From Anaerolineae bacterium (lineage in GTDB: Bacteria > Chloroflexota > Anaerolineae > JAAYZQ01), in contig DAOTXL010000137.1 of the NCBI GenBank assembly GCA_034435455.1, positions 54,687 to 118,686 on the forward strand: a stretch of 64,000 bases of DNA, given 5' to 3'. Below the pieces are notes generated by a model that saw only the letters and a list, made by a program, of their open reading frames with translations, ran no database searches and was not told where the DNA came from. Position numbers and translations under genes: made by a program. Below are positions 7,707 to 56,432 of this stretch, piece after piece (the first letter of the stretch is position 1; each line of letters starts with the position of its first letter).

Positions 7707-10028
7707 CTACTCCTGGTTCCCCCGCTTCTGGATGCCGTCCAGATAGGCGACGTCGCCGGTGTTCAGGTCGGCGGCGTTGGCTTCGTCGGTGTCCAGGTGC
7801 AATTCCAGCTTGAATTTGGGTGAAACCCGCACCACCACGTCGCCAAAGATCAGCTCCCGTTCGTCGCCGGCCCGGACGCGTACCACATCGCCGTCCTGCA
7901 GGCCGAGGCGGCGGGCGTCGTCGGGCGTCATGTGGATATGCCGCTGGGCATAGATGACGCCGTTTTTGATCTCGATCTGGCCGGCCGGGCCTTCCAGGAT
8001 CAGCCCCGGCGTGCCGTCCAGATCGCCCGACAGGCGCACAGGGGCGTTGATGCCCAGCCGGTAGCCCTCTGTCCGGGAGATCTCCACCTGGGTCAGGGTG
8101 CGTGCCGGGCCGAGGACCCGGACGTTCTCTATGCTGCTGCGGGGGCCGATGAGCCGCACCGTCTCTTCGGCGGCGTACTGGCCCGGCTGCGACAGGGGGG
8201 AGCGGGGGGTGAGTTGATGGCCGGCGCCGAACAACCGCTCCACGTCGGCCTGGCTCAGGTGGACGTGGTGGGCCGACACGCCGATGGGGATCGGGATTTT
8301 GCTGGCCTGCATCTGGCGGGTGATGGCCTGGTAGCCCAGGATGCGGATCGTCTCGCGGGCGATCATGCGCGAGGCATCCGAGTGAATGACCAGCACCTTG
8401 ACTTTGGAATCGGGGTGGGAGATCTCTTCCACGCCCGTTACCCCGTCGCGCACCGTCCGGTTTCTGACGGCGTCTATCAGGATGCCCAGGCCCCACATCC
8501 CCTGACAGGCCAGGGCCCGCACCCCGGCCGCGTTCTCCCCGATGCCGCCGGTAAAGACCAGCACATCCAGGCCGCCCAGGACAGCATAGTAGGCGCCGAT
8601 ATACTTGCGCACCCGGTAGGCAAACACCTCGGCGGCCAGCAGGGCCCTGGAGTCGCCGGCGTTGGCCGCAGCGGCGATCTCACGGGTATCGCCCGACAGC
8701 CCCGATAGCCCCTTCAGGCCGCTCTCCCGGTTCAGCAGGTCGTCGATCTGATCGGCCGACAGCCCCTGACGCATCAGGTAGGTGACGATAGCCGGGTCCA
8801 GGTCGCCAGAGCGGGTGACCATGACCAGTCCCTCCAGGGGGGTGAGGCCCATGCTGGTATCCACCGAGCGGCCATGGTCGATGGCGCACACCGAAGCCCC
8901 TTCGCCCAGGTGACAGGTGATGATCTTGAGGCGGGAAAAGGGCCTTTTCAGGTAGGTGGCCGCCATGAGTGCCACATAGTGGTGCGACGGCCCGTGGAAC
9001 CCGTAGCGGCGGATGCCCTCCCTGGTGTACAGTTCCTCCGGCAGGGCGTAGCGATAGGCGTAGGGGGGCATGGTCTGGTGGAAAGCGGTATCGAACACCG
9101 CCACATGGGGCACGTCGGGCAGCAGTTCGCGCAGCCACTCGATGCCCTGGGCCTGCATCGGGTTGTGGAGGGGGGCCAGGGGGGCCAGGCGGCGGATGTC
9201 GGCCAGCACCTGGTCGTCAATCACCACGGGGTTGGAGTACTTGTCGCCGCCATGGACCACCCGGTGGCCAACGGCTGTGATCTCGCCCAGGTCCTTGATG
9301 ACGCCGATCCTGGGATCGGTCAGCCGGTCGAGGACGGCCTGGAGCGCCTGCCGATGGTCGGCCTGGCCTAGCTCGAAGCGGTGCTCGCCGCTGACGGTCC
9401 GGTGGGTCTGGAGGGTGCCCGGCCGGTCAATCCATTCGATCTGCCCTTCGACATGGTGGCTTTCGTCGCCGGTGTCGAAAAAGCGGTACTTGAGCGACCC
9501 GGTGCGCAGGTTGATAACCAATATCTTTTGGGGACCTTCGGGGCCGGGGGTCAGGTTCAGGCCGTAGGGATCGGCCTCTTTTTCGGCCTGCTGGCGGATA
9601 TGTTCTTCTCTGTCTCGCTCGATCAACGTGCCGCGCCGGGCGACGGTCCTGGCAAAACGTTGGAGGGCTGCCGGATCGGCCTGGACCCAGCGGTGAAACA
9701 GATGGCCCGGCACCAGCAGCACCTGGCAGGGGGTGGTGGCGATCACATCTACCGGGGAGGGGATGCCGGCCATCAGCGACAGGGTGCCCAGCTCGCCGCC
9801 GGCCCGGATCGTATCCAGCCGGCGCGGCTCTCCCTCTTGTTCGGCGGTGAAAAAGCCGGCCTCTCCTTCCAGGATCACCCCGAAAAAGGTGAACGGCTGG
9901 CCAAAGGGGACGATCACCTCGCCCGGCGCATAGGGTGCGATCTGGGCCTGTTCCTCAATGGCCTGGGCGATCTCGGGCGGCAGGCCTTCAAAGACCGGGT
10001 ACCGGTTCAGGATTTCTCGCGTAATCAT
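7707..10028 (-). CDS. Tri-domain fusion: cNMP-binding domain + acetate/propionate kinase + PduL-type phosphate acyltransferase
   Basis: The N-terminus has a CAP effector domain (FFGVILEG...ELGTLSLMAG). The middle is AckA (ILVINLRTGS, VVHGGDKYS, HGPSHHYV, ITCHLGEGASVCAIDHGRSVDTSMG, VFTGGIGENAA). The C-terminus aligns nearly residue-for-residue with Salmonella PduL (GVSAHHVHLS, SQPGQYAAEETVRLIGP, AQRHIHMTP, HLDTDEANAA). Confidence 0.85.
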   Translation of the reverse strand: MITREILNRYPVFEGLPPEIAQAIEEQAQIAPYAPGEVIVPFGQPFTFFGVILEGEAGFFTAEQEGEPRRLDTIRAGGELGTLSLMAGIPSPVDVIATTPCQVLLVPGHLFHRWVQADPAALQRFARTVARRGTLIERDREEHIRQQAEKEADPYGLNLTPGPEGPQKILVINLRTGSLKYRFFDTGDESHHVEGQIEWIDRPGTLQTHRTVSGEHRFELGQADHRQALQAVLDRLTDPRIGVIKDLGEITAVGHRVVHGGDKYSNPVVIDDQVLADIRRLAPLAPLHNPMQAQGIEWLRELLPDVPHVAVFDTAFHQTMPPYAYRYALPEELYTREGIRRYGFHGPSHHYVALMAATYLKRPFSRLKIITCHLGEGASVCAIDHGRSVDTSMGLTPLEGLVMVTRSGDLDPAIVTYLMRQGLSADQIDDLLNRESGLKGLSGLSGDTREIAAAANAGDSRALLAAEVFAYRVRKYIGAYYAVLGGLDVLVFTGGIGENAAGVRALACQGMWGLGILIDAVRNRTVRDGVTGVEEISHPDSKVKVLVIHSDASRMIARETIRILGYQAITRQMQASKIPIPIGVSAHHVHLSQADVERLFGAGHQLTPRSPLSQPGQYAAEETVRLIGPRSSIENVRVLGPARTLTQVEISRTEGYRLGINAPVRLSGDLDGTPGLILEGPAGQIEIKNGVIYAQRHIHMTPDDARRLGLQDGDVVRVRAGDERELIFGDVVVRVSPKFKLELHLDTDEANAADLNTGDVAYLDGIQKRGNQE

Positions 10029-19242: not shown

Positions 19243-19283
19243 CTCTATCCTCTTCCTATTGTTGTCCGATGCCGGTAACTGTT

Positions 19284-19326
19284 CAGGTGCCAGGCACTTG
19301 GGCGAATTCTACAAGTGCCTGGCACC
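19284..19326. promoter_or_regulatory. Dyad-symmetric element, copy A: two AAGTGCCWGGCACTT-type 15-mers separated by 13 bp
   Basis: aactgttcAGGTGCCAGGCACTTgggcgaattctacAAGTGCCTGGCACcc. It lies in the 5' region of the fusion flavoprotein gene, between two copies of a 27-bp direct repeat (19248-19274 and 19336-19362). Confidence 0.5.
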
Positions 19327-19343
19327 CGATAGTAACCCTCTTC

Positions 19344-48613: not shown

Positions 48614-48779
48614 TGGTTTTCGCAGGAAACGCACCTTTTTTCATCGGTGAAGCCTCCCCTCCGGCGTCTGTGAAAAAGGAGGTGATCAGGCCAGGGAACC
48701 CTTGTTCCGGTTGAGGAGGCAGTGTTCCAACGGAAAGTGTCGGCCTGAGCCGATAACACACAAAGAAGGGGAGGAAACC

Positions 48780-50177
48780 ATGTCTACCAGGAGAATGTTG
48801 TTGGTCGTTTGGGTCGCCAGCGCCGTGGTGCTGGCTCTGAGCGCCGGCCCCCAGCCGGCCGCCACAGTCAACGCCCTGTCCCCGGCAGGGACGACCGTTC
48901 CCTATTCCGGGCGTCTAGGCGACGAGGCGGGACAGCCGGTCGTCGACGGAGCGTACGACTTGAGCTTTGCGTTGTACGACACTCCGGAGGGTGGCAGCTT
49001 ACTCTGGTCAGAAACCCAAACCGGAGTGGCGGTGCAGGGCGGCTTTTTTACCTGCCAATTGGGCAGTGTGAACCCCTTACCGGCCGGCGTGCGGGAGGGG
49101 CAGGGGTGGCTGGCGGTCGGCGTGCGCGGGCCGGGGGAAACCGATTTTACGGCGTTGAATCCACGCCAGGCGTGGAGCGCCTCGCCGGCCAGCCCCACCA
49201 ACGGCGGAGCTTGCCCCCACGACCACTTTGGGGAAACCTGGACCGGAACCGGCCTGGCATTGGCCCTGAATAGCAGCTATGCCGACAACGAGACTCTGTA
49301 CGTTACGAACAATGCCACATCTGGTGATGGGATTCGCGTTTACAATTCCGGCACAGGATCCAACGATGCTGCCGTGAAGGGGAGCAACCTCTCCTCCGGA
49401 CTCGGCATACGTGGCTCGAGCACTACCGGCATTGGCGTCAAAGGTACCAGTGGCTGGGTGGGTGTTTGGGGGGAATCCACGGCAGCGGCCAACGGCGTAG
49501 GCGTAGCCGGCCTGGCCAACGCCTCTGGCTGTTCTACCGGCATCGGGGGTTGCTACGGCGTCCAGGGCAGCAGCACCAACGGGTATGGCGTGGAAGGGGT
49601 TACCGACGGCAGCGGCGTGGCCGTACATGCCTATAGCAACGGCAACGGCGTCGCCCTGCGCGTCGAGGGCCAGTATAGCGGCAACCTGATTGAAGCCTAT
49701 CATGGCCCGCTGTTCCTTGATCGCGAGTTCTACGTGAGCAGCACAGGCGAGGTCTACGCCGATGGCCAGTTCCATTCCGGCGGCGCTGACCTGGCCGAGA
49801 TGCTGCCGGCGGCCAAGGGGCTGGAGCCGGGCGACGTGTTGGTGATGGGAACAGACGGCAGGCTGACCCGTTGCACGCAGGCCTATCAGACCAGCGTCGT
49901 CGGCGTATATTCGACCAGGCCCGGTTTTGTGGGCGGCGCTGAAGACGGCGCCGACCTGAGCGGCAAAGTGCCGCTGGCGGTGGTGGGCGTCGCGCCGGTG
50001 AAGGTCACCGCCGAAAATGGTTCCATCCAGCCCGGCGACCTGCTGGTGGCCTCGTCCACCCCTGGCCACGCCATGAAAGCCGGCCCCAATCCGCCCGTCG
50101 GCACGGTCATCGGCAAGGCGCTGGGCGCGCTACAGTCCGGCACCGGTGTCATCCAGATGCTGGTCACTTTGCAGTAG
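48780..50177 (+). CDS. Secreted glycine-rich beta-helix/tail-fibre-like repeat protein
   Basis: Signal peptide then an N-domain (..GAYDLSFALYDTPEGGSLLWSETQTGVAVQGGFF..). The middle carries about 10 GxxGxGV(K/E)G repeats. The conserved C-domain reads ..VVGVYSTRPGF..PLAVVGVAPVKV..GDLLVASSTPGHAMKA..IGKAL..VTLQ. Confidence 0.55.
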   Translation: MSTRRMLLVVWVASAVVLALSAGPQPAATVNALSPAGTTVPYSGRLGDEAGQPVVDGAYDLSFALYDTPEGGSLLWSETQTGVAVQGGFFTCQLGSVNPLPAGVREGQGWLAVGVRGPGETDFTALNPRQAWSASPASPTNGGACPHDHFGETWTGTGLALALNSSYADNETLYVTNNATSGDGIRVYNSGTGSNDAAVKGSNLSSGLGIRGSSTTGIGVKGTSGWVGVWGESTAAANGVGVAGLANASGCSTGIGGCYGVQGSSTNGYGVEGVTDGSGVAVHAYSNGNGVALRVEGQYSGNLIEAYHGPLFLDREFYVSSTGEVYADGQFHSGGADLAEMLPAAKGLEPGDVLVMGTDGRLTRCTQAYQTSVVGVYSTRPGFVGGAEDGADLSGKVPLAVVGVAPVKVTAENGSIQPGDLLVASSTPGHAMKAGPNPPVGTVIGKALGALQSGTGVIQMLVTLQ

Positions 50178-50188
50178 GAGGGAGGACG

Positions 50189-50455
50189 ATGAAAGCAGGG
50201 GTTGTCATCTTGCTCGTCGCGCTCGCCGGCGCCCTGTTCGTGAGCGGCATCGTTCTGGCCCAGGGCGGCGGCAGCACTCAGCCCGGCGTGACGACCCTCA
50301 GCGGGGGCCACTACCGGCTGGTCAGCCTGGAGGCGCCGACGGGCCTGCTTGCCAGCGGCGGGGGGTACCGCCTGCTGGCGTCCCTCCCTGCGGGGCCTGT
50401 CGGCAGCGGCTGCTGCTGCACCTACCTGCCCTGCGTGTTGCGCACCTTCCCGTAG
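50189..50455 (+). CDS. Small secreted Cys-rich protein (88 aa) co-transcribed with the repeat protein
   Basis: Signal peptide, two GG(H/G)YRL(V/L)(S/A)SL repeats and a C-terminal GSGCCCTYLPCVLRTFP; GGAGGGAGG RBS 12 nt after the upstream stop. Confidence 0.45.
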   Translation: MKAGVVILLVALAGALFVSGIVLAQGGGSTQPGVTTLSGGHYRLVSLEAPTGLLASGGGYRLLASLPAGPVGSGCCCTYLPCVLRTFP

Positions 50456-50516
50456 GAGGTCAAGGACGCATATCAGATTCTATGCGTCCTCCGCTACGGC
50501 GGGTAGAATGACGTAC

Positions 50517-50559
50517 GGACCTCCCGCAGGTTGAGAACCTGCGGGAGGTCTGGTTTGCC
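50517..50559 (+). terminator. Rho-independent terminator (13-bp stem GGACCTCCCGCAGG/CCTGCGGGAGGTC + UGGUUUGCC)
   Basis: Perfect inverted repeat after the two-gene unit; a second 10-bp hairpin lies at 50463-50490. Confidence 0.5.
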
Positions 50560-50583
50560 GTTGCTGCCCGATTGTGCTATACT
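50555..50583 (+). promoter_or_regulatory. Sigma70-like promoter TTGCCG-N17-TGcTATACT
   Basis: The -10 is 18 nt upstream of the ATG at 50602, giving a very short leader. Confidence 0.4.
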
Positions 50584-50601
50584 ATCCCCGTGGCCGATCT
50601 G

Positions 50602-51456
50602 ATGGTTCCCGCCCAATGGAGTTGCCTCGACGTGGAGGATTGGCGCGGTGTTGTGATGGTGATCGGCGCTTCCGATACGGGCAAGTCCACGTTGGCCCGC
50701 TACCTGTTTCAGGAGCTATGTCGTCATGGCCGCCGCGCCGCCTACCTGGACGGCGACGTGGGCCAGAGCACGTTGGGGGTGCCGACCACCATGACCGTGG
50801 CGCTGACCTCGGCGCCGGGCGACGATCGCTTTCCACCTCATGGCCCGCGGGCAACCTATTTCGTCGGAGCCACCACGCCGCGCGGGCACATGCTACCCAC
50901 GGTGATCGGCTGCTATCGTCTCCGGCAAAAGGCGCTGGCCCTGGGCGCCGAGGCGATCGTGGTGGACACCACCGGCCTGGTGGACCCCGCGGAAGGAGGC
51001 AAGGCGCTCAAACAGTGGAAGGTTGAGCTGTTGGCCCCCTCGGTGGTGATCGGCCTGCAGCGGCGGCACGAGCTGGAGCCGATCCTGTGGCCGCTGCGCC
51101 GCGAGGGGCGGCTGCGCTGTATTGAGCTTTCTGTCTCGCCCCACGCTGTGGAACGGCCCCGCGAGGTGCGCATCGCCCGGCGACGGGAGCGGCTGGTCGC
51201 CTACTTTGAGGCGGCCCGGCCCCAACTGCTGGAGTTCAGGCGGCTGGCGGCCTACGACCTGGAGCGGCTGGCCGTGGGTGCCCTCCTGGCGTTCCAGGAT
51301 GCCGAGGGCCTGGTCCTGAGCCTGGGTGCGGTCGAGGAAACCGACCGGCTGGGCGGCACAGCCATAGTGCGTACGCCGTTGCCGGGCCTGGAGGGGGTGT
51401 GCAGTGTGCGCTTTGGTGCGGCCCGCTGGGACCTGGTCAACCGACGGGAATTGTGA
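50602..51456 (+). CDS. Clp1/Grc3-family polynucleotide 5'-hydroxyl kinase homolog (CLP1_P P-loop domain)
   Basis: VMVIGASDTGKSTLARYLFQELCRHGRRAAYLDGDVGQSTLGVPTTMTVAL parallels eukaryotic/archaeal Clp1 (VMVVGPTDVGKST...ELDVGQGS..IPGTM). Confidence 0.6.
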   Translation: MVPAQWSCLDVEDWRGVVMVIGASDTGKSTLARYLFQELCRHGRRAAYLDGDVGQSTLGVPTTMTVALTSAPGDDRFPPHGPRATYFVGATTPRGHMLPTVIGCYRLRQKALALGAEAIVVDTTGLVDPAEGGKALKQWKVELLAPSVVIGLQRRHELEPILWPLRREGRLRCIELSVSPHAVERPREVRIARRRERLVAYFEAARPQLLEFRRLAAYDLERLAVGALLAFQDAEGLVLSLGAVEETDRLGGTAIVRTPLPGLEGVCSVRFGAARWDLVNRREL

Positions 51457-52674
51457 ATGAAGCCAAAATTGCGAGAGGTTGAAGCCCATCCCATCCGCTA
51501 TCAGGGCCAGCCGATGATCCTGCTGCGCGACCCGCTGCGCCTAAGCGATGCCCAGATCGCCGTCCCCCGGCCCCTGGCTCCGCTGCTGGGGCTGATGGAC
51601 GGCAGCCGCGACGAATCAGAGTTGGAGGCGGCGCTGCTGCTCCGCGCCGGGGTGCGGCTGGCCCCTGGCCTGCTGTCCAAACTGCTGGCCGACCTGGACG
51701 CGGCCTGCCTGCTGGACAATGAGCGTTTTGCCGAGGCCAAAGCGGCCGCGTTGCGGGCCTACCGCGAAGCGCCCTTTCGCCCCCTGGCCTCCCTGGATGG
51801 TTCTGGAGCGGCTGACGACCCCGACCGGGTGGCCGCTCATTTGCAAGGCTATCTGGACGCCCTGCCGCCGGCGGAGCAGCCGGCAGACGACCGGCCGATC
51901 CGGGGCCTGATCAGCCCCCACATTGATTACCAGCGCGGCGGGCCGGTGTATGCCCAGGTGTGGCGGGCGGCGGCCCAGGCGGCCTGCCAGGCCGAGCTGG
52001 TCATCATCCTGGGCACCGATCACCAGGGCGACGACGGCACGCTGACCCTCACCGGCCGGTCGTATGCCACGCCGTGGGGGGTATTGCCCACCGATGATGA
52101 GGCGGTGGCCGCCCTGGCAGAGGCGTTGGGCCGGGAAGCGGCCTTTGCCGGAGAACTGAACCACCGCAGTGAACACTCGGTCGAACTGGCCGCCGTATGG
52201 CTCCACTTTATCCGTGGCCGTCGGCCGGTGTCGCTGCTGCCGATCTTGTGCGGAAGCTTCGGCGGCTTTATAGCCGGTACGGGCGATCCGGCTACCCATC
52301 CACCCTTTGTTGCTGCCCTGGAGGTGCTGCGGAGGGTGATGGCCGCCCGCCGGACGTTGGTGGTCGCCGCCGCCGACCTGGCTCACGTTGGGCCGGCCTT
52401 TGGCGACCCCAGAGGGTTGGATTTTATCGCCAGGGCCCAACTGCACAACGCCGACGAACGGTTGCTGGCGGCGGTCTATGCCGGGGATGCGACCGCCTTT
52501 TTCGAGCAGTTAAAGGCCGAGGGTGACCGGCGGCATGTATGTGGCCTGCCGCCCATCTATCTGACATTGCGGCTGTTGGACGGGGCGCAGGGGGAGCCGG
52601 CCGGCTACGCCCAGTGCCCGGCCGATCCGCAGGGGCTATCGTGGGTGACGATTGCCGGAGTAATTCTACGGTGA
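51457..52674 (+). CDS. MEMO1-family (AmmeMemoRadiSam system protein B-like) with a 130-aa N-terminal extension
   Basis: ISPHIDYQRGG...ILGTDH...AAADLAHVG...HVCGLPPI core motifs; the ATG directly follows the upstream TGA. Confidence 0.7.
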   Translation: MKPKLREVEAHPIRYQGQPMILLRDPLRLSDAQIAVPRPLAPLLGLMDGSRDESELEAALLLRAGVRLAPGLLSKLLADLDAACLLDNERFAEAKAAALRAYREAPFRPLASLDGSGAADDPDRVAAHLQGYLDALPPAEQPADDRPIRGLISPHIDYQRGGPVYAQVWRAAAQAACQAELVIILGTDHQGDDGTLTLTGRSYATPWGVLPTDDEAVAALAEALGREAAFAGELNHRSEHSVELAAVWLHFIRGRRPVSLLPILCGSFGGFIAGTGDPATHPPFVAALEVLRRVMAARRTLVVAAADLAHVGPAFGDPRGLDFIARAQLHNADERLLAAVYAGDATAFFEQLKAEGDRRHVCGLPPIYLTLRLLDGAQGEPAGYAQCPADPQGLSWVTIAGVILR

Positions 52675-52686
52675 GGGGAACTGTTC

Positions 52687-52721
52687 AGGTGCCAGGCACT
52701 TTCTACAAGTGCCTGGCACCT
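52687..52721. promoter_or_regulatory. Dyad-symmetric element, copy B (two AAGTGCCWGGCACTT 15-mers, 5-bp spacer)
   Basis: aactgttcAGGTGCCAGGCACTTtctacAAGTGCCTGGCACct, between the Memo-like gene and the DUF4139 gene. Confidence 0.5.
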
Positions 52722-52762
52722 TTGGCGAGTCGGTCTGAATAGTAGCGGGGAAAGGAGCAAAT

Positions 52763-54697
52763 ATGACCTGCCTACCCATTGTGCACATGACCCTGTACAA
52801 ACATGGCATCGGCTTTTTCGAGCGCCGGGCCCGGCTCAGCGGCGAGGAGGTGGCCCTCTCCTTCCGCGTGGAAGAGATGAACGACATCCTCAAGAGCCTG
52901 ACGGCCATTGACCGGGGTGGCGGACAGGTGTTGGGCGTGGACTATGCCACCCCCCAGAGCCGGGAGGAGCGGCTGGCCGGCTGTTCGGTGCGCCTGGGCG
53001 ACGACCGCAGCCTGCGCGACCTCCTGATCGGCCTGCGTGGGCGACGGGTGCGGTTGCTGCTCGACCAGGAGGAGACGGCCAGCGGCACCTTGCTGGGGTT
53101 GGACGAAGTGCCGGAGCGGCAGCCGCTGAGCACGGCGCTGGTCTCGTTGTTGCTGGAGGAGACGGCGCAGGTGCAGGTGGTGAACCTGGGGCGGGTGCAG
53201 GGGGTCGAAATCCTGGACGAGCGAGGGGTGGGTGACCTGCGCTTCTTCCTGCAGACGGCCCTCACCCAGGAGGACTATCGTCAGGTGACGATCCGCCTGA
53301 CGCCCGGCGAGCACGACCTCTCGGTCAGCTACATCGCCCCGGCGCCAACCTGGCGGGTCAGCTACCGCCTGGTGGCCGAACCGGAGACGGACGATGGGCC
53401 GCGGGCCCTGCTGCAGGGGTGGGGCATTTTCGATAACCGGCTGGAGGAAGACCTGAAGGATATCTCCCTGTCGTTGGTGGCGGGCATGCCCATCAGTTTT
53501 GTCTACGACCTGTACACCCCTTTCATGCCCAGGCGCCCGGTCGTGGAAGAAGAAGCCCGCGTCGCTGCGGCACCGGTCCAGTTTGCCGAGGCGACGTTGG
53601 GCGCGGAACCGGAAGCGGCTCCTGCCCCGATGGAGATGGCTGCGATGAGGATGGCCGCGCCGATGGCTCCGCCGCTGCCGCCTGCCATTGACCGCCGGGC
53701 GTTGGCCCAGGCTACGGCGGTGACAACTACCGGGGAATCGCTGGGGGAGCTGTTCCAGTACCTCATCGGCACGCCGGTGACGGTCGGGCGTGGCCAGTCG
53801 GCCATGGTGCCCATCCTCTCGGCGGACCTGAGCTATCGCAAGGATCTGCTCTACAACGGCAGCAAGATGCCGACCCATCCGGTGGCCACCCTGCGCCTCA
53901 AAAACGAGACCGGCCTGACCCTGGAACGCGGCCCGGTGGCCGTCATCGAGCGGGGCGAGTATGTGGGTGAGGCGGTGCTGTCCTTCACCGCCGCCGGCGG
54001 CGAGGTGGTGGTGCCCTATGCGGTGGAATTGGGCATCAGGGTGCGTGAGGAGAGCGGTTCCAGCCGCGAGGTCCACCGCCTGTGGATCAAAGGGGCCTAC
54101 CTGCACTTCGAGGAGTGGGAGGTCCGCTGGCGGGAGTATCAGCTCACCAACCGTACCGGCAAGGCGGTGACCGTGTTGGTCGAGCATCCCCGCACAGCCC
54201 AGTACGACCTGTGGGACACGCCGGAGCCGACAGAACGCACCGAGGAGCAGTACCGTTTCGCGGCCAGGGTCCCGGCGCGGGGCGAGTCGGGGCTACGGGT
54301 ACAGGAGCGCCGCCTGGTCAGCCGTTATGAGGATCTGCAGAGGCAATCGTACGATCTCTTGCAACGCTATCTGCAGCGGGGGTTGTTGGATCGGAAGGCC
54401 TGTGACCGCGCGGCCAGGCTGCTGCGGTTGTGGGAAGAGGTCAAGAATGCTGAGGGGCAATTGGGGAAACTGGATCAGGAGCGGCAAAAGATCTACAAGG
54501 CCCAGCAACAGATCCAGGGGAATATGGGGGCGCTATCCACGACGGGCAAAGAGGGAACCTTGCGGGCCCAGTATGTGGATCAGTTGCAGGCCAGCGAAGA
54601 GAGGCTGAAGGAGGTAGATCGGCAGGAGGCGGGTCTGAAGGCCGGGCTCGAGCGGCTGAAAGCGGAGATCGAGGCGGAGTTGAAGGCCCTCGAATAG
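52763..54697 (+). CDS. DUF4139/DUF4140-like protein with a C-terminal coiled coil
   Basis: 644 aa. N-terminus ..VHMTLYKHGIGFFERRARLSGEE.. and a long charged helical tail (..LERLKAEIEAELKALE). The family assignment is tentative. Confidence 0.45.
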   Translation: MTCLPIVHMTLYKHGIGFFERRARLSGEEVALSFRVEEMNDILKSLTAIDRGGGQVLGVDYATPQSREERLAGCSVRLGDDRSLRDLLIGLRGRRVRLLLDQEETASGTLLGLDEVPERQPLSTALVSLLLEETAQVQVVNLGRVQGVEILDERGVGDLRFFLQTALTQEDYRQVTIRLTPGEHDLSVSYIAPAPTWRVSYRLVAEPETDDGPRALLQGWGIFDNRLEEDLKDISLSLVAGMPISFVYDLYTPFMPRRPVVEEEARVAAAPVQFAEATLGAEPEAAPAPMEMAAMRMAAPMAPPLPPAIDRRALAQATAVTTTGESLGELFQYLIGTPVTVGRGQSAMVPILSADLSYRKDLLYNGSKMPTHPVATLRLKNETGLTLERGPVAVIERGEYVGEAVLSFTAAGGEVVVPYAVELGIRVREESGSSREVHRLWIKGAYLHFEEWEVRWREYQLTNRTGKAVTVLVEHPRTAQYDLWDTPEPTERTEEQYRFAARVPARGESGLRVQERRLVSRYEDLQRQSYDLLQRYLQRGLLDRKACDRAARLLRLWEEVKNAEGQLGKLDQERQKIYKAQQQIQGNMGALSTTGKEGTLRAQYVDQLQASEERLKEVDRQEAGLKAGLERLKAEIEAELKALE

Positions 54698-54720: not shown

Positions 54721-55257
54721 TTACCGGGCTGCCTCGGCGAGCATATCCAGCAATGCCTGGCGTTTTTCGGCGTACTGGGGCTCGTCGAACAGCGGGGTGC
54801 AGGCCTTTACTTCGGCCTCGCCAACCGTGATCTGGCCGGCAAAGGCAAAGCAGGAGGGCTGGCCGCACCGCTTGCAGTTGGTCTGGGGCAACAGCCTGTA
54901 AACCTCCATGGCCACCAGGCGCTTGCGGGTCGTGTGGAGCGGCGTCAGGTTGTCACGGTCCATCCAGATGCGGTTGATGGCGGCGATGATCTTTTCCATC
55001 TGGATGGCAGCCGTGTCGCGGTCCGGCAGGTTGCTGATGGTGATCTCGTGGGGTTTCAAGGCCACGGCATGGCCTTCGAAGCGGAGGGTGATTTGCCGGG
55101 CGGCCGGGCTATAGATGGCCTCTTTCCACTGGGCGTTGAGGTAGGGGAACACCTCGCTGATCTCCTCCTCAAAGCGGGCTGTGGCGTTCCAATACTCGGC
55201 GCCGGGCTCGCAGGCCGGGGCCTCCAGATGCATCTCATAATCTTTGGCAATAAACAT
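54721..55257 (-). CDS. Putative Fe-S cluster protein with a CFeSP-like motif (PF04060-type)
   Basis: ...VYRLLPQTNCKRCGQPSCFAFAGQ... matches the corrinoid-FeS-protein N-terminal LPKTNCGxCGxPTCxAFA motif. GGAGGAGCG RBS before MFIAKDY. Confidence 0.5.
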   Translation of the reverse strand: MFIAKDYEMHLEAPACEPGAEYWNATARFEEEISEVFPYLNAQWKEAIYSPAARQITLRFEGHAVALKPHEITISNLPDRDTAAIQMEKIIAAINRIWMDRDNLTPLHTTRKRLVAMEVYRLLPQTNCKRCGQPSCFAFAGQITVGEAEVKACTPLFDEPQYAEKRQALLDMLAEAAR

Positions 55258-55350
55258 CGCTCCTCCCCAGGTCCCCGATGCGTCGGCCGGGGCAGGGGTA
55301 GTATACCATGCTCTGCCGCAAAGGTCAAACCGGCGGGATGGGCTGCTGTT

Positions 55351-55365
55351 CAAGTGCCAGGCACT
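55351..55365. promoter_or_regulatory. Dyad-symmetric element, copy C (single perfect unit AAGTGCCAGGCACTT)
   Basis: gctgctgttcAAGTGCCAGGCACTTtcg in the divergent intergenic region between 54721..55257 (-) and 55482..56432 (+). Confidence 0.45.
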
Positions 55366-55481
55366 TTCGCTTCCAGATGGGAGATACCCTGGCCCGGCCA
55401 ATTTGACAAAAGTCAGAAAATGACTATAATTATATTTTATTGGTGCTGGCTGGGAGAAAATCAAGAAAGGGAGGGTGATTC

Positions 55482-56432
55482 ATGGACCAATTGTTCTGTT
55501 GCGTCTGCCACGCCCCGGTGGGCGACGACGCGCCACGCCTGGGTGGGCGGGCCTATTGTGCGCAACACTATGCCAGGGCATCCAGGGAACGGCGCAGCGT
55601 GTGGCGGTCGGGGGTGGCGCAGATCGTGGCCGTCGTTTTGTTTGCCGTGTTGGTCGCGCTGATCTTGGGTACGATCAAGCCGGCATGGGAGGGTCCGGCG
55701 CTGGTGTTGAGCGGTGCCGTGTTGGCGTTGGTGCCGGCGGCGTTGTGGCTGGCCTTCTTTTATGCCCAGGACCGACTGGAGCCGGAGCCCAAGCCTTTCG
55801 TCATCGGGGTCTTTGTCCTGGGGGCGCTACTGGCCAATGCCATCGGCATTCCGCTGGTGCGCGACCTGTTCCGGGTGCAGGACTGGCTGGGCCGCAGCCT
55901 GCTCACCAACCTCTTGGGTTCGATCCTGGTTGTCGGCTTTGTCCAGGAGTTTCTCAAATATGCGGCGGTGCGCTACAGCGTCTATCTGCTGCCCGAATTC
56001 GACGAGCGGATGGATGGCATCCTCTACGGCACGGCGGCCGGGCTGGGCTTTGCCACGATGCTGAACATCAACTATGTGGTCGAAAGCGGCGGCGTGGACC
56101 TGGGGGTGGGCGTCATCCGCATCGTGGTGACGGCCCTGGCCCAGGCCAGTTTTGCCGGTATCACCGGTTATTTCCTGGGCCGCGCCAGGTTCGAGGAGGA
56201 GCCGGTGTGGTGGCTGCCCCTGGGGGTGACGGTGGCGGCGGTGCTCAACGGCCTGTTCACCGTGATCCTGGGCGGCGTGACCCGCGTTGGATCGGTGTTG
56301 GCCGGAAAGACGGCCAATCCGTGGTATGGGCTGGTGCTGGCCACTGTGGTCGCCGGCCTGATCTTTGGGCTGCTCATTGCCCTCATCCGCCGCGCCATCC
56401 GCCTGACCGTGACCGGTCAGCAGGGGGCCTGA
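55482..56432 (+). CDS. PrsW-family intramembrane metalloprotease with an N-terminal zinc ribbon
   Basis: CCVCHAPV...YCAQHY, then 7-8 TM helices with QEFLKYAAVRY (EExxK-like) and the GILYGTAAGLGFATMLN region. Confidence 0.55.
   Translation: MDQLFCCVCHAPVGDDAPRLGGRAYCAQHYARASRERRSVWRSGVAQIVAVVLFAVLVALILGTIKPAWEGPALVLSGAVLALVPAALWLAFFYAQDRLEPEPKPFVIGVFVLGALLANAIGIPLVRDLFRVQDWLGRSLLTNLLGSILVVGFVQEFLKYAAVRYSVYLLPEFDERMDGILYGTAAGLGFATMLNINYVVESGGVDLGVGVIRIVVTALAQASFAGITGYFLGRARFEEEPVWWLPLGVTVAAVLNGLFTVILGGVTRVGSVLAGKTANPWYGLVLATVVAGLIFGLLIALIRRAIRLTVTGQQGA

Follow-up and report, generated by a model that had tools for sequence, protein, structure and literature searches.

A three-gene locus in an Anaerolineae genome

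The 64,000-nt stretch of DNA analyzed here, referred to as the window, is from contig DAOTXL010000137.1 of an Anaerolineae bacterium (Chloroflexota). It harbors three consecutive genes that encode a Clp1-type kinase, a Memo-family protein and a DUF4139-family protein. A first-pass annotation, made without database searches, proposed that the three could form an uncharacterized unit for nucleic-acid end healing, repair or modification. The results presented here do not support that proposal: the genes are adjacent in one clade only, they are lost independently of one another, and bacterial Clp1 proteins have already been described (PMC6777427). Each gene is a further member of an already-known family, and the arrangement is probably an ordinary local gene order, in which three independent genes share a lineage-specific operon, rather than a new repair system. 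The features of the locus, in window positions, are as follows.

50463..50550, + strand: two GC-rich hairpins (inverted repeats of 10 and 15 nt, 100% complementary)
50555..50583, + strand: promoter-like element (promoter scan and conservation in relatives)
50590..51456, + strand: predicted Clp1-family polynucleotide 5'-OH kinase (CLP1_P, human CLP1 match, motifs)
51457..52674, + strand: Memo-family protein, 405 aa (Pfam Memo, TIGR04336)
52677..52721, no strand: one copy of a dispersed palindromic intergenic repeat (inverted-repeat arms, other copies in the window)
52763..54697, + strand: divergent DUF4139-family protein, 644 aa (homology to a Rhizobium protein that passes the DUF4139 model)
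54721..55257, - strand: convergent PF04060 Fe-S gene, 178 aa, given for context only (Pfam FeS, E=5e-12)

The three open reading frames (ORFs) all lie on the + strand, where the first-pass annotation had placed them. Their third-position GC content is 0.79-0.85, as expected for real genes in a genome of ~65% GC, and public metagenome-assembled genomes of Anaerolineae (Chloroflexota) contain identical or near-identical proteins.

For comparison, one 10-residue kinase pattern yielded 271 loci in species-representative genomes, of which 80 were kept. This search used a narrower kinase alignment (A2), the first, diverse alignment (A1) being too divergent. The 80 loci, which like the related loci are numbered with an L below, are from Chloroflexota, Desulfobacterota, Acidobacteriota, Planctomycetota (Brocadiales), Methylomirabilota, Actinomycetota, Binatia, Calditrichaceae and Rhodothermales (about ten phyla), with flanks of up to 8 kb on each side. 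Memo genes were sought within 8 kb of these kinases by tblastn and then by profile hidden Markov models (HMMs). Related loci, with flanks of up to 8-10 kb, were seen as contig stretches with gene tables (L082-L084, L088, L089 and the P0509 contig).

Family membership of the three proteins

The first gene encodes a Clp1-family kinase that is predicted to be active. The Pfam model CLP1_P matches residues 22-203 (E=1.3e-32; 113.5 bits against a cutoff of 26.6) over 187 of its 188 profile positions. The closest solved structure is human CLP1 (8hmy; E=6.5e-11, residues 12-204), followed by C. elegans Clp1 and NOL9. The motifs quoted by the first-pass annotation are present as GASDTGKST, LDGDVGQ and PTTM, and no other NTPase family scores better; all others match the P-loop only, with E values of at least 3.8e-4, the value of the runner-up, APS_kinase. 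The Walker A motif is G22-ASDT-G27-K28-S29 and the Walker B motif is D52-V-G-Q55. Across 46 aligned homologues, a diverse set at 31-65% identity, residues G22, G27, K28, D50, D52, G54 and Q55 are identical throughout and position 29 is serine or threonine. The lid, R185-PREV-R190, aligns with RSKDFR of human CLP1. R185 is arginine in 39 of the homologues and lysine in five, R190 is arginine in 45, and R194 is arginine in all 46. The prediction of activity follows from the CLP1_P match, the match to human CLP1 and the intact catalytic motifs.

By homology, and given these motifs, the kinase would phosphorylate 5'-OH ends with the gamma-phosphate of ATP, acting on RNA and less efficiently on DNA. 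It may thereby make cleaved 5'-OH RNA competent for decay that depends on a 5'-monophosphate, or for ligation. The likely start codon is GTG 50590; the first-pass annotation and NCBI used the ATG at 50602, four codons further in. The GTG start gives 288 aa instead of 284; it is conserved in relatives, and most homologues are 288 aa long, both of which support the longer product.

The bacterial branch of the Clp1 family is not new. Saito et al. 2019 catalogued 149 bacterial Clp1 sequences as rare and phylogenetically scattered (PMC6777427). The only bacterial member tested biochemically, Ts-Clp1 of Thermus scotoductus, is a thermostable 5'-OH kinase that prefers single-stranded RNA and also phosphorylates single-stranded DNA, with a Km for ATP of about 2.5 uM (PMC6777427). 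Like the window kinase, the members of this family (Ts-Clp1; seed Geobacter uraniireducens A5G778) have a short N-terminus and a CLP1_P domain with Walker A, Walker B and lid, lack the N- and C-terminal domains of the eukaryotic and archaeal proteins, and are scattered over phyla (PMC6777427). The loci of the present search include some from Geobacteraceae (L060, L061). Within the family, the window kinase falls in an Anaerolineae subgroup with a conserved C-terminal domain; this part, ~80 aa after the CLP1_P domain, is family-specific. An exhaustive search (E<=1e-3) found ~2,000 bacterial clusters at 50% identity. Most of the best 150 clusters are ~290 aa long and align along the whole query. 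The statement that the Clp1 family is typical of eukaryotes and archaea, made in the first-pass annotation, is therefore out of date.

The kinase domain is homologous to that of eukaryotic and archaeal Clp1, Nol9 and Grc3, and its Walker A, LDxDVGQ and RxxxxR lid align with human CLP1. Unlike those proteins, the window kinase lacks the Clp1 N- and C-terminal domains and has no context of a tRNA-splicing or 3'-end-processing complex, and its clasp ends in leucine rather than tryptophan. The reference clasp motif of the family, which binds RNA, is [T/S/L]xGW; the window kinase has T123-T-G125-L126, and all 46 homologues keep the threonine or serine and the glycine and end in leucine, phenylalanine or methionine, never in tryptophan.

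This change from [T/S/L]xGW to TxG(L/F/M), found throughout the bacterial kinase family, is a point in favor of an alternative that we regard as improbable, in which the protein has kept the Clp1 fold with changed specificity and phosphorylates in vivo not a polynucleotide but a small molecule or protein that is then used by Memo. The replacement of the eukaryotic and archaeal C-terminal domains by a family-specific one would also fit (PMC6777427). However, the catalytic residues of Walker A, Walker B and the lid show little or no variation, Ts-Clp1 acts on single-stranded RNA and DNA (PMC6777427), and alternative kinase families score no further than the P-loop.

Membership in a defense system was considered and rejected; the sole PADLOC match was mad8, a trivial P-loop match (E=3.7e-5). 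In the bacterial Pnkp-Hen1 RNA repair system, a T4 Pnk-type kinase is fused to a phosphatase and a ligase, and Hen1 is a conserved partner. The likeness is that of a bacterial system with polynucleotide 5'-OH kinase activity for RNA end healing, but the window locus has no phosphatase, ligase, methyltransferase or conserved partner.

The second gene encodes a Memo-family protein, as the first-pass annotation had recognized. Residues 141-375 match Pfam Memo (E=2.3e-24; 86.5 bits against a cutoff of 27), and the protein passes NCBIfam TIGR04336, AmmeMemoRadiSam protein B (E=7e-23; 81.2 bits against a cutoff of 26). In the sequence TGAATG the stop codon of the kinase runs directly into the start codon of Memo, with 0 nt between them, and translation of the two genes is probably coupled. 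The motifs PH.DY, GTDH, EHS.E, ADLAH and CG are characteristic of the family, and we take them to be the metal-ligand motifs. Their identity in 21 homologues suggests that the metal site is active. No solved structure was matched when the Memo protein was searched by profile; these structures are too distant for profile detection and for an alignment of the ligands to MEMO1.

The Memo domain is preceded by an N-terminal extension of ~135 aa (51457-51870) that is strongly conserved among homologues. It has no match in Pfam, among known folds or in PDB profiles. A low-confidence model (pLDDT 52) gives a beta-beta-beta-alpha-alpha-alpha topology. This topology and the sequence pattern raised the idea of a PqqD/RRE-type peptide-recognition domain, which the searches neither supported nor excluded: Foldseek with the poor model (pLDDT 52) returned nothing below E=0.6, PDB profiles returned nothing relevant, and Pfam returned no match.

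Memo proteins of this type belong to the AmmeMemoRadiSam system, which consists of AMMECR1, Memo and a radical S-adenosylmethionine (SAM) enzyme (TIGR04335-04337). The window protein shares with this system and with MEMO1 the TIGR04336 and Pfam Memo matches and motifs that are conserved in its subfamily, but differs in the extra N-terminal domain and in that no partners were found in the 64-kb window or the flanks of related loci. The first-pass annotation had noted the lack of partners, and the searches agree. A tblastn search with a bona fide TIGR04337 protein detected no AmmeMemoRadiSam-type radical SAM in the window (best E=0.42), and no window ORF of at least 200 aa contains CxxxCxxC. AMMECR1 (TIGR04335/PF01871) was found neither in ten window ORFs of 161-259 aa nor in the ORFs that surround the three genes. 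Neither AMMECR1 nor a TIGR04337 radical SAM is listed in the gene tables for L082-L084, L088, L089 and the P0509 contig. The protein would be a metalloenzyme with an extra conserved N-terminal domain that acts without AMMECR1 or radical-SAM partners nearby.

The third gene encodes a distant member of the DUF4139 family. Its 644-aa product has no direct Pfam match, even at E<=10, and no NCBIfam match. The 120 closest homologues (67-97% identity) are all named "hypothetical", with no Pfam domain precomputed for any of them. When annotated plasmids were searched by tblastn, they yielded relatives of almost full length under the NCBI name "DUF4139 domain-containing protein". The Rhizobium tumorigenes protein WP_278333387.1, also 644 aa, passes Pfam DUF4139 (PF13598; 42.1 against 31.8 bits), and the window protein is its full-length homologue (BLASTP E=3e-30 over residues 5-643; hhalign 99.7%, E=3.4e-27, 602 aligned columns). 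By this transitive homology the third gene belongs to the DUF4139 family, and the first-pass description of a DUF4139-like coiled-coil protein was right. The window protein has the architecture of DUF4139 proteins, including the C-terminal coiled coil, and is homologous to them over residues 5-643; unlike them, the protein and its 120 closest homologues are below the reach of the Pfam model.

The AlphaFold model (pLDDT 68.7) has beta-rich domains and a disordered linker rich in alanine and proline (~aa 241-330). A beta-sandwich region occupies aa 322-524, and the C-terminus folds into an antiparallel coiled-coil hairpin (aa 530-643, pLDDT ~90). The beta-rich N-terminal half includes a probable Sm/WYL-like barrel at ~aa 80-150; Foldseek gave weak local matches to Sm/Hfq domains and to WYL domains that bind single-stranded DNA (ssDNA), with E values of 0.01-0.3. 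The gene is preceded by a GGAGG-type ribosome-binding site of its own. No catalytic signature was found in the protein, and no informative literature on DUF4139 function was found. The protein is most likely structural or scaffolding, beta-rich with a coiled-coil tail.

Promoter, hairpins and palindromic repeat

The promoter-like element was found by the scan as a -35 box, TTGCCG, a 17-nt spacer and an extended -10 element, TGTGCTATACT (50573-50583). The -10 box, TATACT with an extended TGTG, ends 6 nt before GTG 50590. The pattern CTTGCC-N17-TGTG(C/A)TATACT is kept in seven relatives (L004, L005, L006, L082, L083, L084 and L088), with 6-7 nt from the -10 box to the start codon in loci that have the kinase and 14 nt in L088. 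A spacing of 6-7 nt is typical of leaderless mRNAs, which suggests that the transcript from the promoter at 50555-50583 is leaderless. The three genes are probably co-transcribed in the clade from this one conserved promoter; in the window, the trio would be transcribed together from one leaderless-type promoter, with translation of kinase and Memo coupled. The promoter is kept in L088 despite deletion of the kinase there, which implies that it drives whatever lies downstream.

The two GC-rich hairpins, at 50463-50490 and 50518-50550, follow an upstream 88-aa ORF. They are without a strong T-run and look like terminators that separate the kinase operon from the upstream genes.

The dyad that the first-pass annotation placed before the 644-aa gene is a perfect 15-nt inverted repeat (52687-52721, with arms at 52687-52701 and 52707-52721) between the Memo and DUF4139 genes. 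It is part of a repeat at 52677-52721 that reads CTGTTCAGGTGCCAGGCACTT...AAGTGCCTGGCACC. The copies in the window are all intergenic: full copies at ~19277-19327 and 52677-52721 and a half copy at ~55345-55366, with the common pattern CTGTTCA(G/A)GTGCCAGGCACTT ... AAGTGCCTGGCACC. Each repeat arm contains a self-palindrome, GTGCC-W-GGCAC, which occurs five times in the window against 0.08 expected. The dispersed palindrome could be an element of the repetitive extragenic palindrome (REP) kind or a repeated operator. A cluster-specific regulatory role for the dyad was rejected, since there are other copies in the window and the element is dispensable in relatives: in L082, for example, only 11 nt separate Memo from the DUF4139 gene. 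The dispersed copies and this short spacer indicate that the dyad is an insertion and not a defining part of the cluster.

Several features lie outside the cluster. The upstream 88-aa ORF has a third-position GC content of 0.91, a signal-like N-terminus and a Cys-rich C-terminus (GCCCTYLPCVLRTFP). The upstream region at 48702-50455 also encodes a 491-aa protein with an N-terminal hydrophobic segment, Gly/Ser-rich repeats and no Pfam match. Downstream, at 55403-55430, a perfect sigma-70 consensus promoter (TTGACA-16 nt-TATAAT, 12/12) precedes a gene for a PrsW-family intramembrane protease (55482-56432); a perfect consensus is unusual for a genome of 65% GC.

Gene order within and beyond the Anaerolineae clade

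The gene order of the clade is ADP-forming acyl-CoA synthetase, DRTGG, enolase, major facilitator superfamily (MFS) protein (opposite strand), kinase, Memo, DUF4139 gene and Fe-S gene (opposite strand). The same-order trio is found in L001, L005, L017, L082, L084 and the P0509 contig, and hence it recurs outside the genome of the window. Memo is the constant element of the clade locus; the kinase and the DUF4139 gene come and go. In L088 (7903-7998) the kinase is cut down to its last 32 codons (E=1.6e-9) by a natural in-frame deletion, with its start and last ~30 codons left as a 31-aa ORF, while the conserved promoter, Memo and the DUF4139 gene are intact. L088 is thus a natural knock-out in which Memo persists without an adjacent kinase. 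In L089, Memo is present and both the kinase and the DUF4139 gene are absent from the locus. The DUF4139 gene is also missing in L003. In L083 it lies 3.3 kb further downstream, past a PMT-type glycosyltransferase and a histidine kinase. Homologues of the DUF4139 protein that are 67-69% identical occur in unrelated contexts (L085-L087) with no kinase or Memo within 8 kb, and distant ones are solo genes on Rhizobium and Azospirillum plasmids (L090, L091). Since each gene occurs and is lost independently, the arrangement is best explained as a lineage-specific accident of gene order, not as a conserved module.

The Fe-S gene is the most stable downstream neighbor and the usual downstream boundary of the syntenic block. 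The C-terminal PF04060 "putative Fe-S cluster" domain is its only recognizable part; this domain is also found in RnfB and in the gamma subunit of CODH/ACS (carbon monoxide dehydrogenase/acetyl-CoA synthase). Gene callers give a product of 178 aa in L001, L084, L088 and L089, and the longest ORF for this gene in the window is 247 aa (54721-55464, - strand). At the upstream end, the closest species-level relative (L002, kinase 83% identical) lacks the MFS gene, and its kinase follows enolase by ~16 nt (7985-8001) with no recognizable promoter. The operon boundary is thus flexible even among close relatives.

These losses bear on the view of the three genes as a single module for nucleic-acid end healing or repair, in which the DUF4139 protein would be a nucleic-acid-binding scaffold through its barrel and coiled coil. 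The recurrence of the trio in six loci, the spacer of just 11 nt between Memo and the DUF4139 gene in L082, and the local similarity that Foldseek found to Sm/Hfq domains and ssDNA-binding WYL domains are consistent with such a module. Yet the DUF4139 gene is absent or displaced within the clade, equally similar homologues are found without kinase or Memo, a mobile palindromic repeat has entered between Memo and the DUF4139 gene in the window, and the Sm-like matches are weak in a fold that is not specific to nucleic-acid binding. A three-gene module is accordingly highly unlikely.

A narrower alternative is that the kinase and Memo constitute a genuine two-enzyme pathway in the Anaerolineae clade, with the DUF4139 protein as a bystander. 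The N-terminal domain of Memo would replace AMMECR1 and the radical SAM, and the substrate would be a nucleic acid or nucleotide 5'-phosphorylated by the kinase. Several observations weigh for this pathway and against three independent genes. Every clade locus that has the kinase has Memo directly downstream (11 DNA loci and the P0509 contig), and the two genes abut in the window (0 nt), overlap by 4 nt in L084 and the P0509 contig, and are 2 nt apart in L083; constant adjacency with overlapping or abutting junctions is the pattern of functional partners. A single conserved promoter precedes the pair, and the Memo subfamily has its strongly conserved extra domain. A second copy of the kinase elsewhere in the L088 and L089 genomes, of which the loci only were seen, is possible. 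Radical SAMs nearest the AmmeMemoRadiSam type adjoin the kinase family in three other lineages, and their presence beside the kinase in other phyla could hint at a deeper link. Burroughs and colleagues reportedly predicted in 2019 that the gene contexts of the Memo clade represent nucleotide-base modification, a role with which a nucleic-acid kinase would be in keeping.

Nonetheless, a two-enzyme pathway is unlikely. In L088 and L089 the kinase is gone, yet Memo, the promoter and the surrounding synteny persist. No Memo was found within 8 kb of the kinase, by tblastn or HMM, in any of the 73 loci outside the clade. Adjacency within the clade says little on function because gene order is in general preserved between genomes this divergent; even enolase, ~85% identical, keeps its position. 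The distant radical SAMs score 63-82 bits against 220 for TIGR04337, and neither Memo nor AMMECR1 stands beside them. A lineage-specific operon of independent genes remains the preferred explanation.

The wider distribution of the kinase points the same way. Memo stands beside the kinase only where the kinases are at least 63% identical, that is, in one Anaerolineae clade (L002-L006 and L017, also L001 and L082-L084). A neighborhood conserved across distant genomes, one of the points raised by the first-pass annotation, was not borne out: the association is limited to this clade, 0/73 loci elsewhere show it, and housekeeping genes share the same synteny. Among 71 loci, the gene directly downstream of the kinase is a nitroreductase in eight, Memo in four, SMC in four and ribosomal protein L25 in three. 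No family directly upstream exceeds two of 76 loci, and in de novo clustering of ORFs no neighbor family exceeds 13 of the 80 loci, that one being of the response-regulator type. Across bacteria, the kinase is a stand-alone gene without a fixed partner.

Some neighborhoods are of interest in their own right. The commonest immediate neighbor, a nitroreductase-family protein of ~170-195 aa, is the next gene downstream on the same strand in L025, L032, L033, L040, L045, L055, L059 and L064, all from Anaerolineae/Chloroflexota with kinases of 36-46% identity. In Thermodesulfobacteriota/Syntrophobacterales, a distant kinase subfamily (34-37% identity) is found in the order radical SAM (divergent, PflA/AmmeMemoRadiSam-like), DUF763, kinase (L067, 5437-9402; L074, 3778-8849; L077, 5109-8852). 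A DUF488 gene follows the kinase in L067, and a family-9 glycosyltransferase lies upstream of the radical SAM-DUF763-kinase cluster. No literature on DUF763 was found; the cluster may be a real, uncharacterized operon related to nucleic acids. In anammox-type Brocadiales/Planctomycetota (L062, 7264-10565; L063, 1333-3337; L070, 819-2251; L071, 5522-6954), the genes next to the kinase are DUF72 (L062), a divergent radical SAM (L062, L063) and an NTPase_1/THEP1-like NTPase (L062, L070, L071). L062 and L071 also encode a bona fide TIGR04337 radical SAM, 3-4.5 kb upstream of the kinase and separated from it by opposite-strand genes. A full AmmeMemoRadiSam system at this position was rejected, as that radical SAM is flanked by an extracytoplasmic function (ECF) sigma factor, DUF3106 and opposite-strand transporters, and neither AMMECR1 nor Memo is nearby.

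The radical SAMs that directly adjoin distant kinases have TIGR04337 as their nearest NCBIfam model, at 63-82 bits against its cutoff of 220, and no Memo or AMMECR1 was found beside them. They are the sole evidence, and weak evidence, that still leaves room for a deeper link of the kinase to the Memo system. On this basis it is conceivable, if distinctly doubtful, that bacterial Clp1-type kinases are recurrently linked in function to AMMECR1-Memo-radical-SAM enzymes. Such a link would comprise the orphan, N-terminally extended Memo in an operon with the kinase in one Anaerolineae clade, and the radical SAMs nearest the AmmeMemoRadiSam type that accompany the kinase, with DUF763, DUF488, DUF72 and NTPase_1 genes, in Brocadiales and Thermodesulfobacteriota. 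If the link were true, the substrate of Memo-type enzymes could be 5'-phosphorylated RNA or a nucleotide, and kinase-Memo would be a minimal pathway.

Finally, the results extend what is known of two of the families. Clp1 kinases are far more widespread in bacteria than the 2019 survey indicated, with ~2,000 clusters from at least ten phyla, and a family of 644-aa "hypothetical" proteins of Anaerolineae is now placed in DUF4139. If the kinase and Memo do act in one pathway, the Anaerolineae pair would offer a simple two-gene system for testing the substrates of the Memo family, a question that concerns human MEMO1 and the prokaryotic AMMECR1-Memo-radical-SAM system alike.

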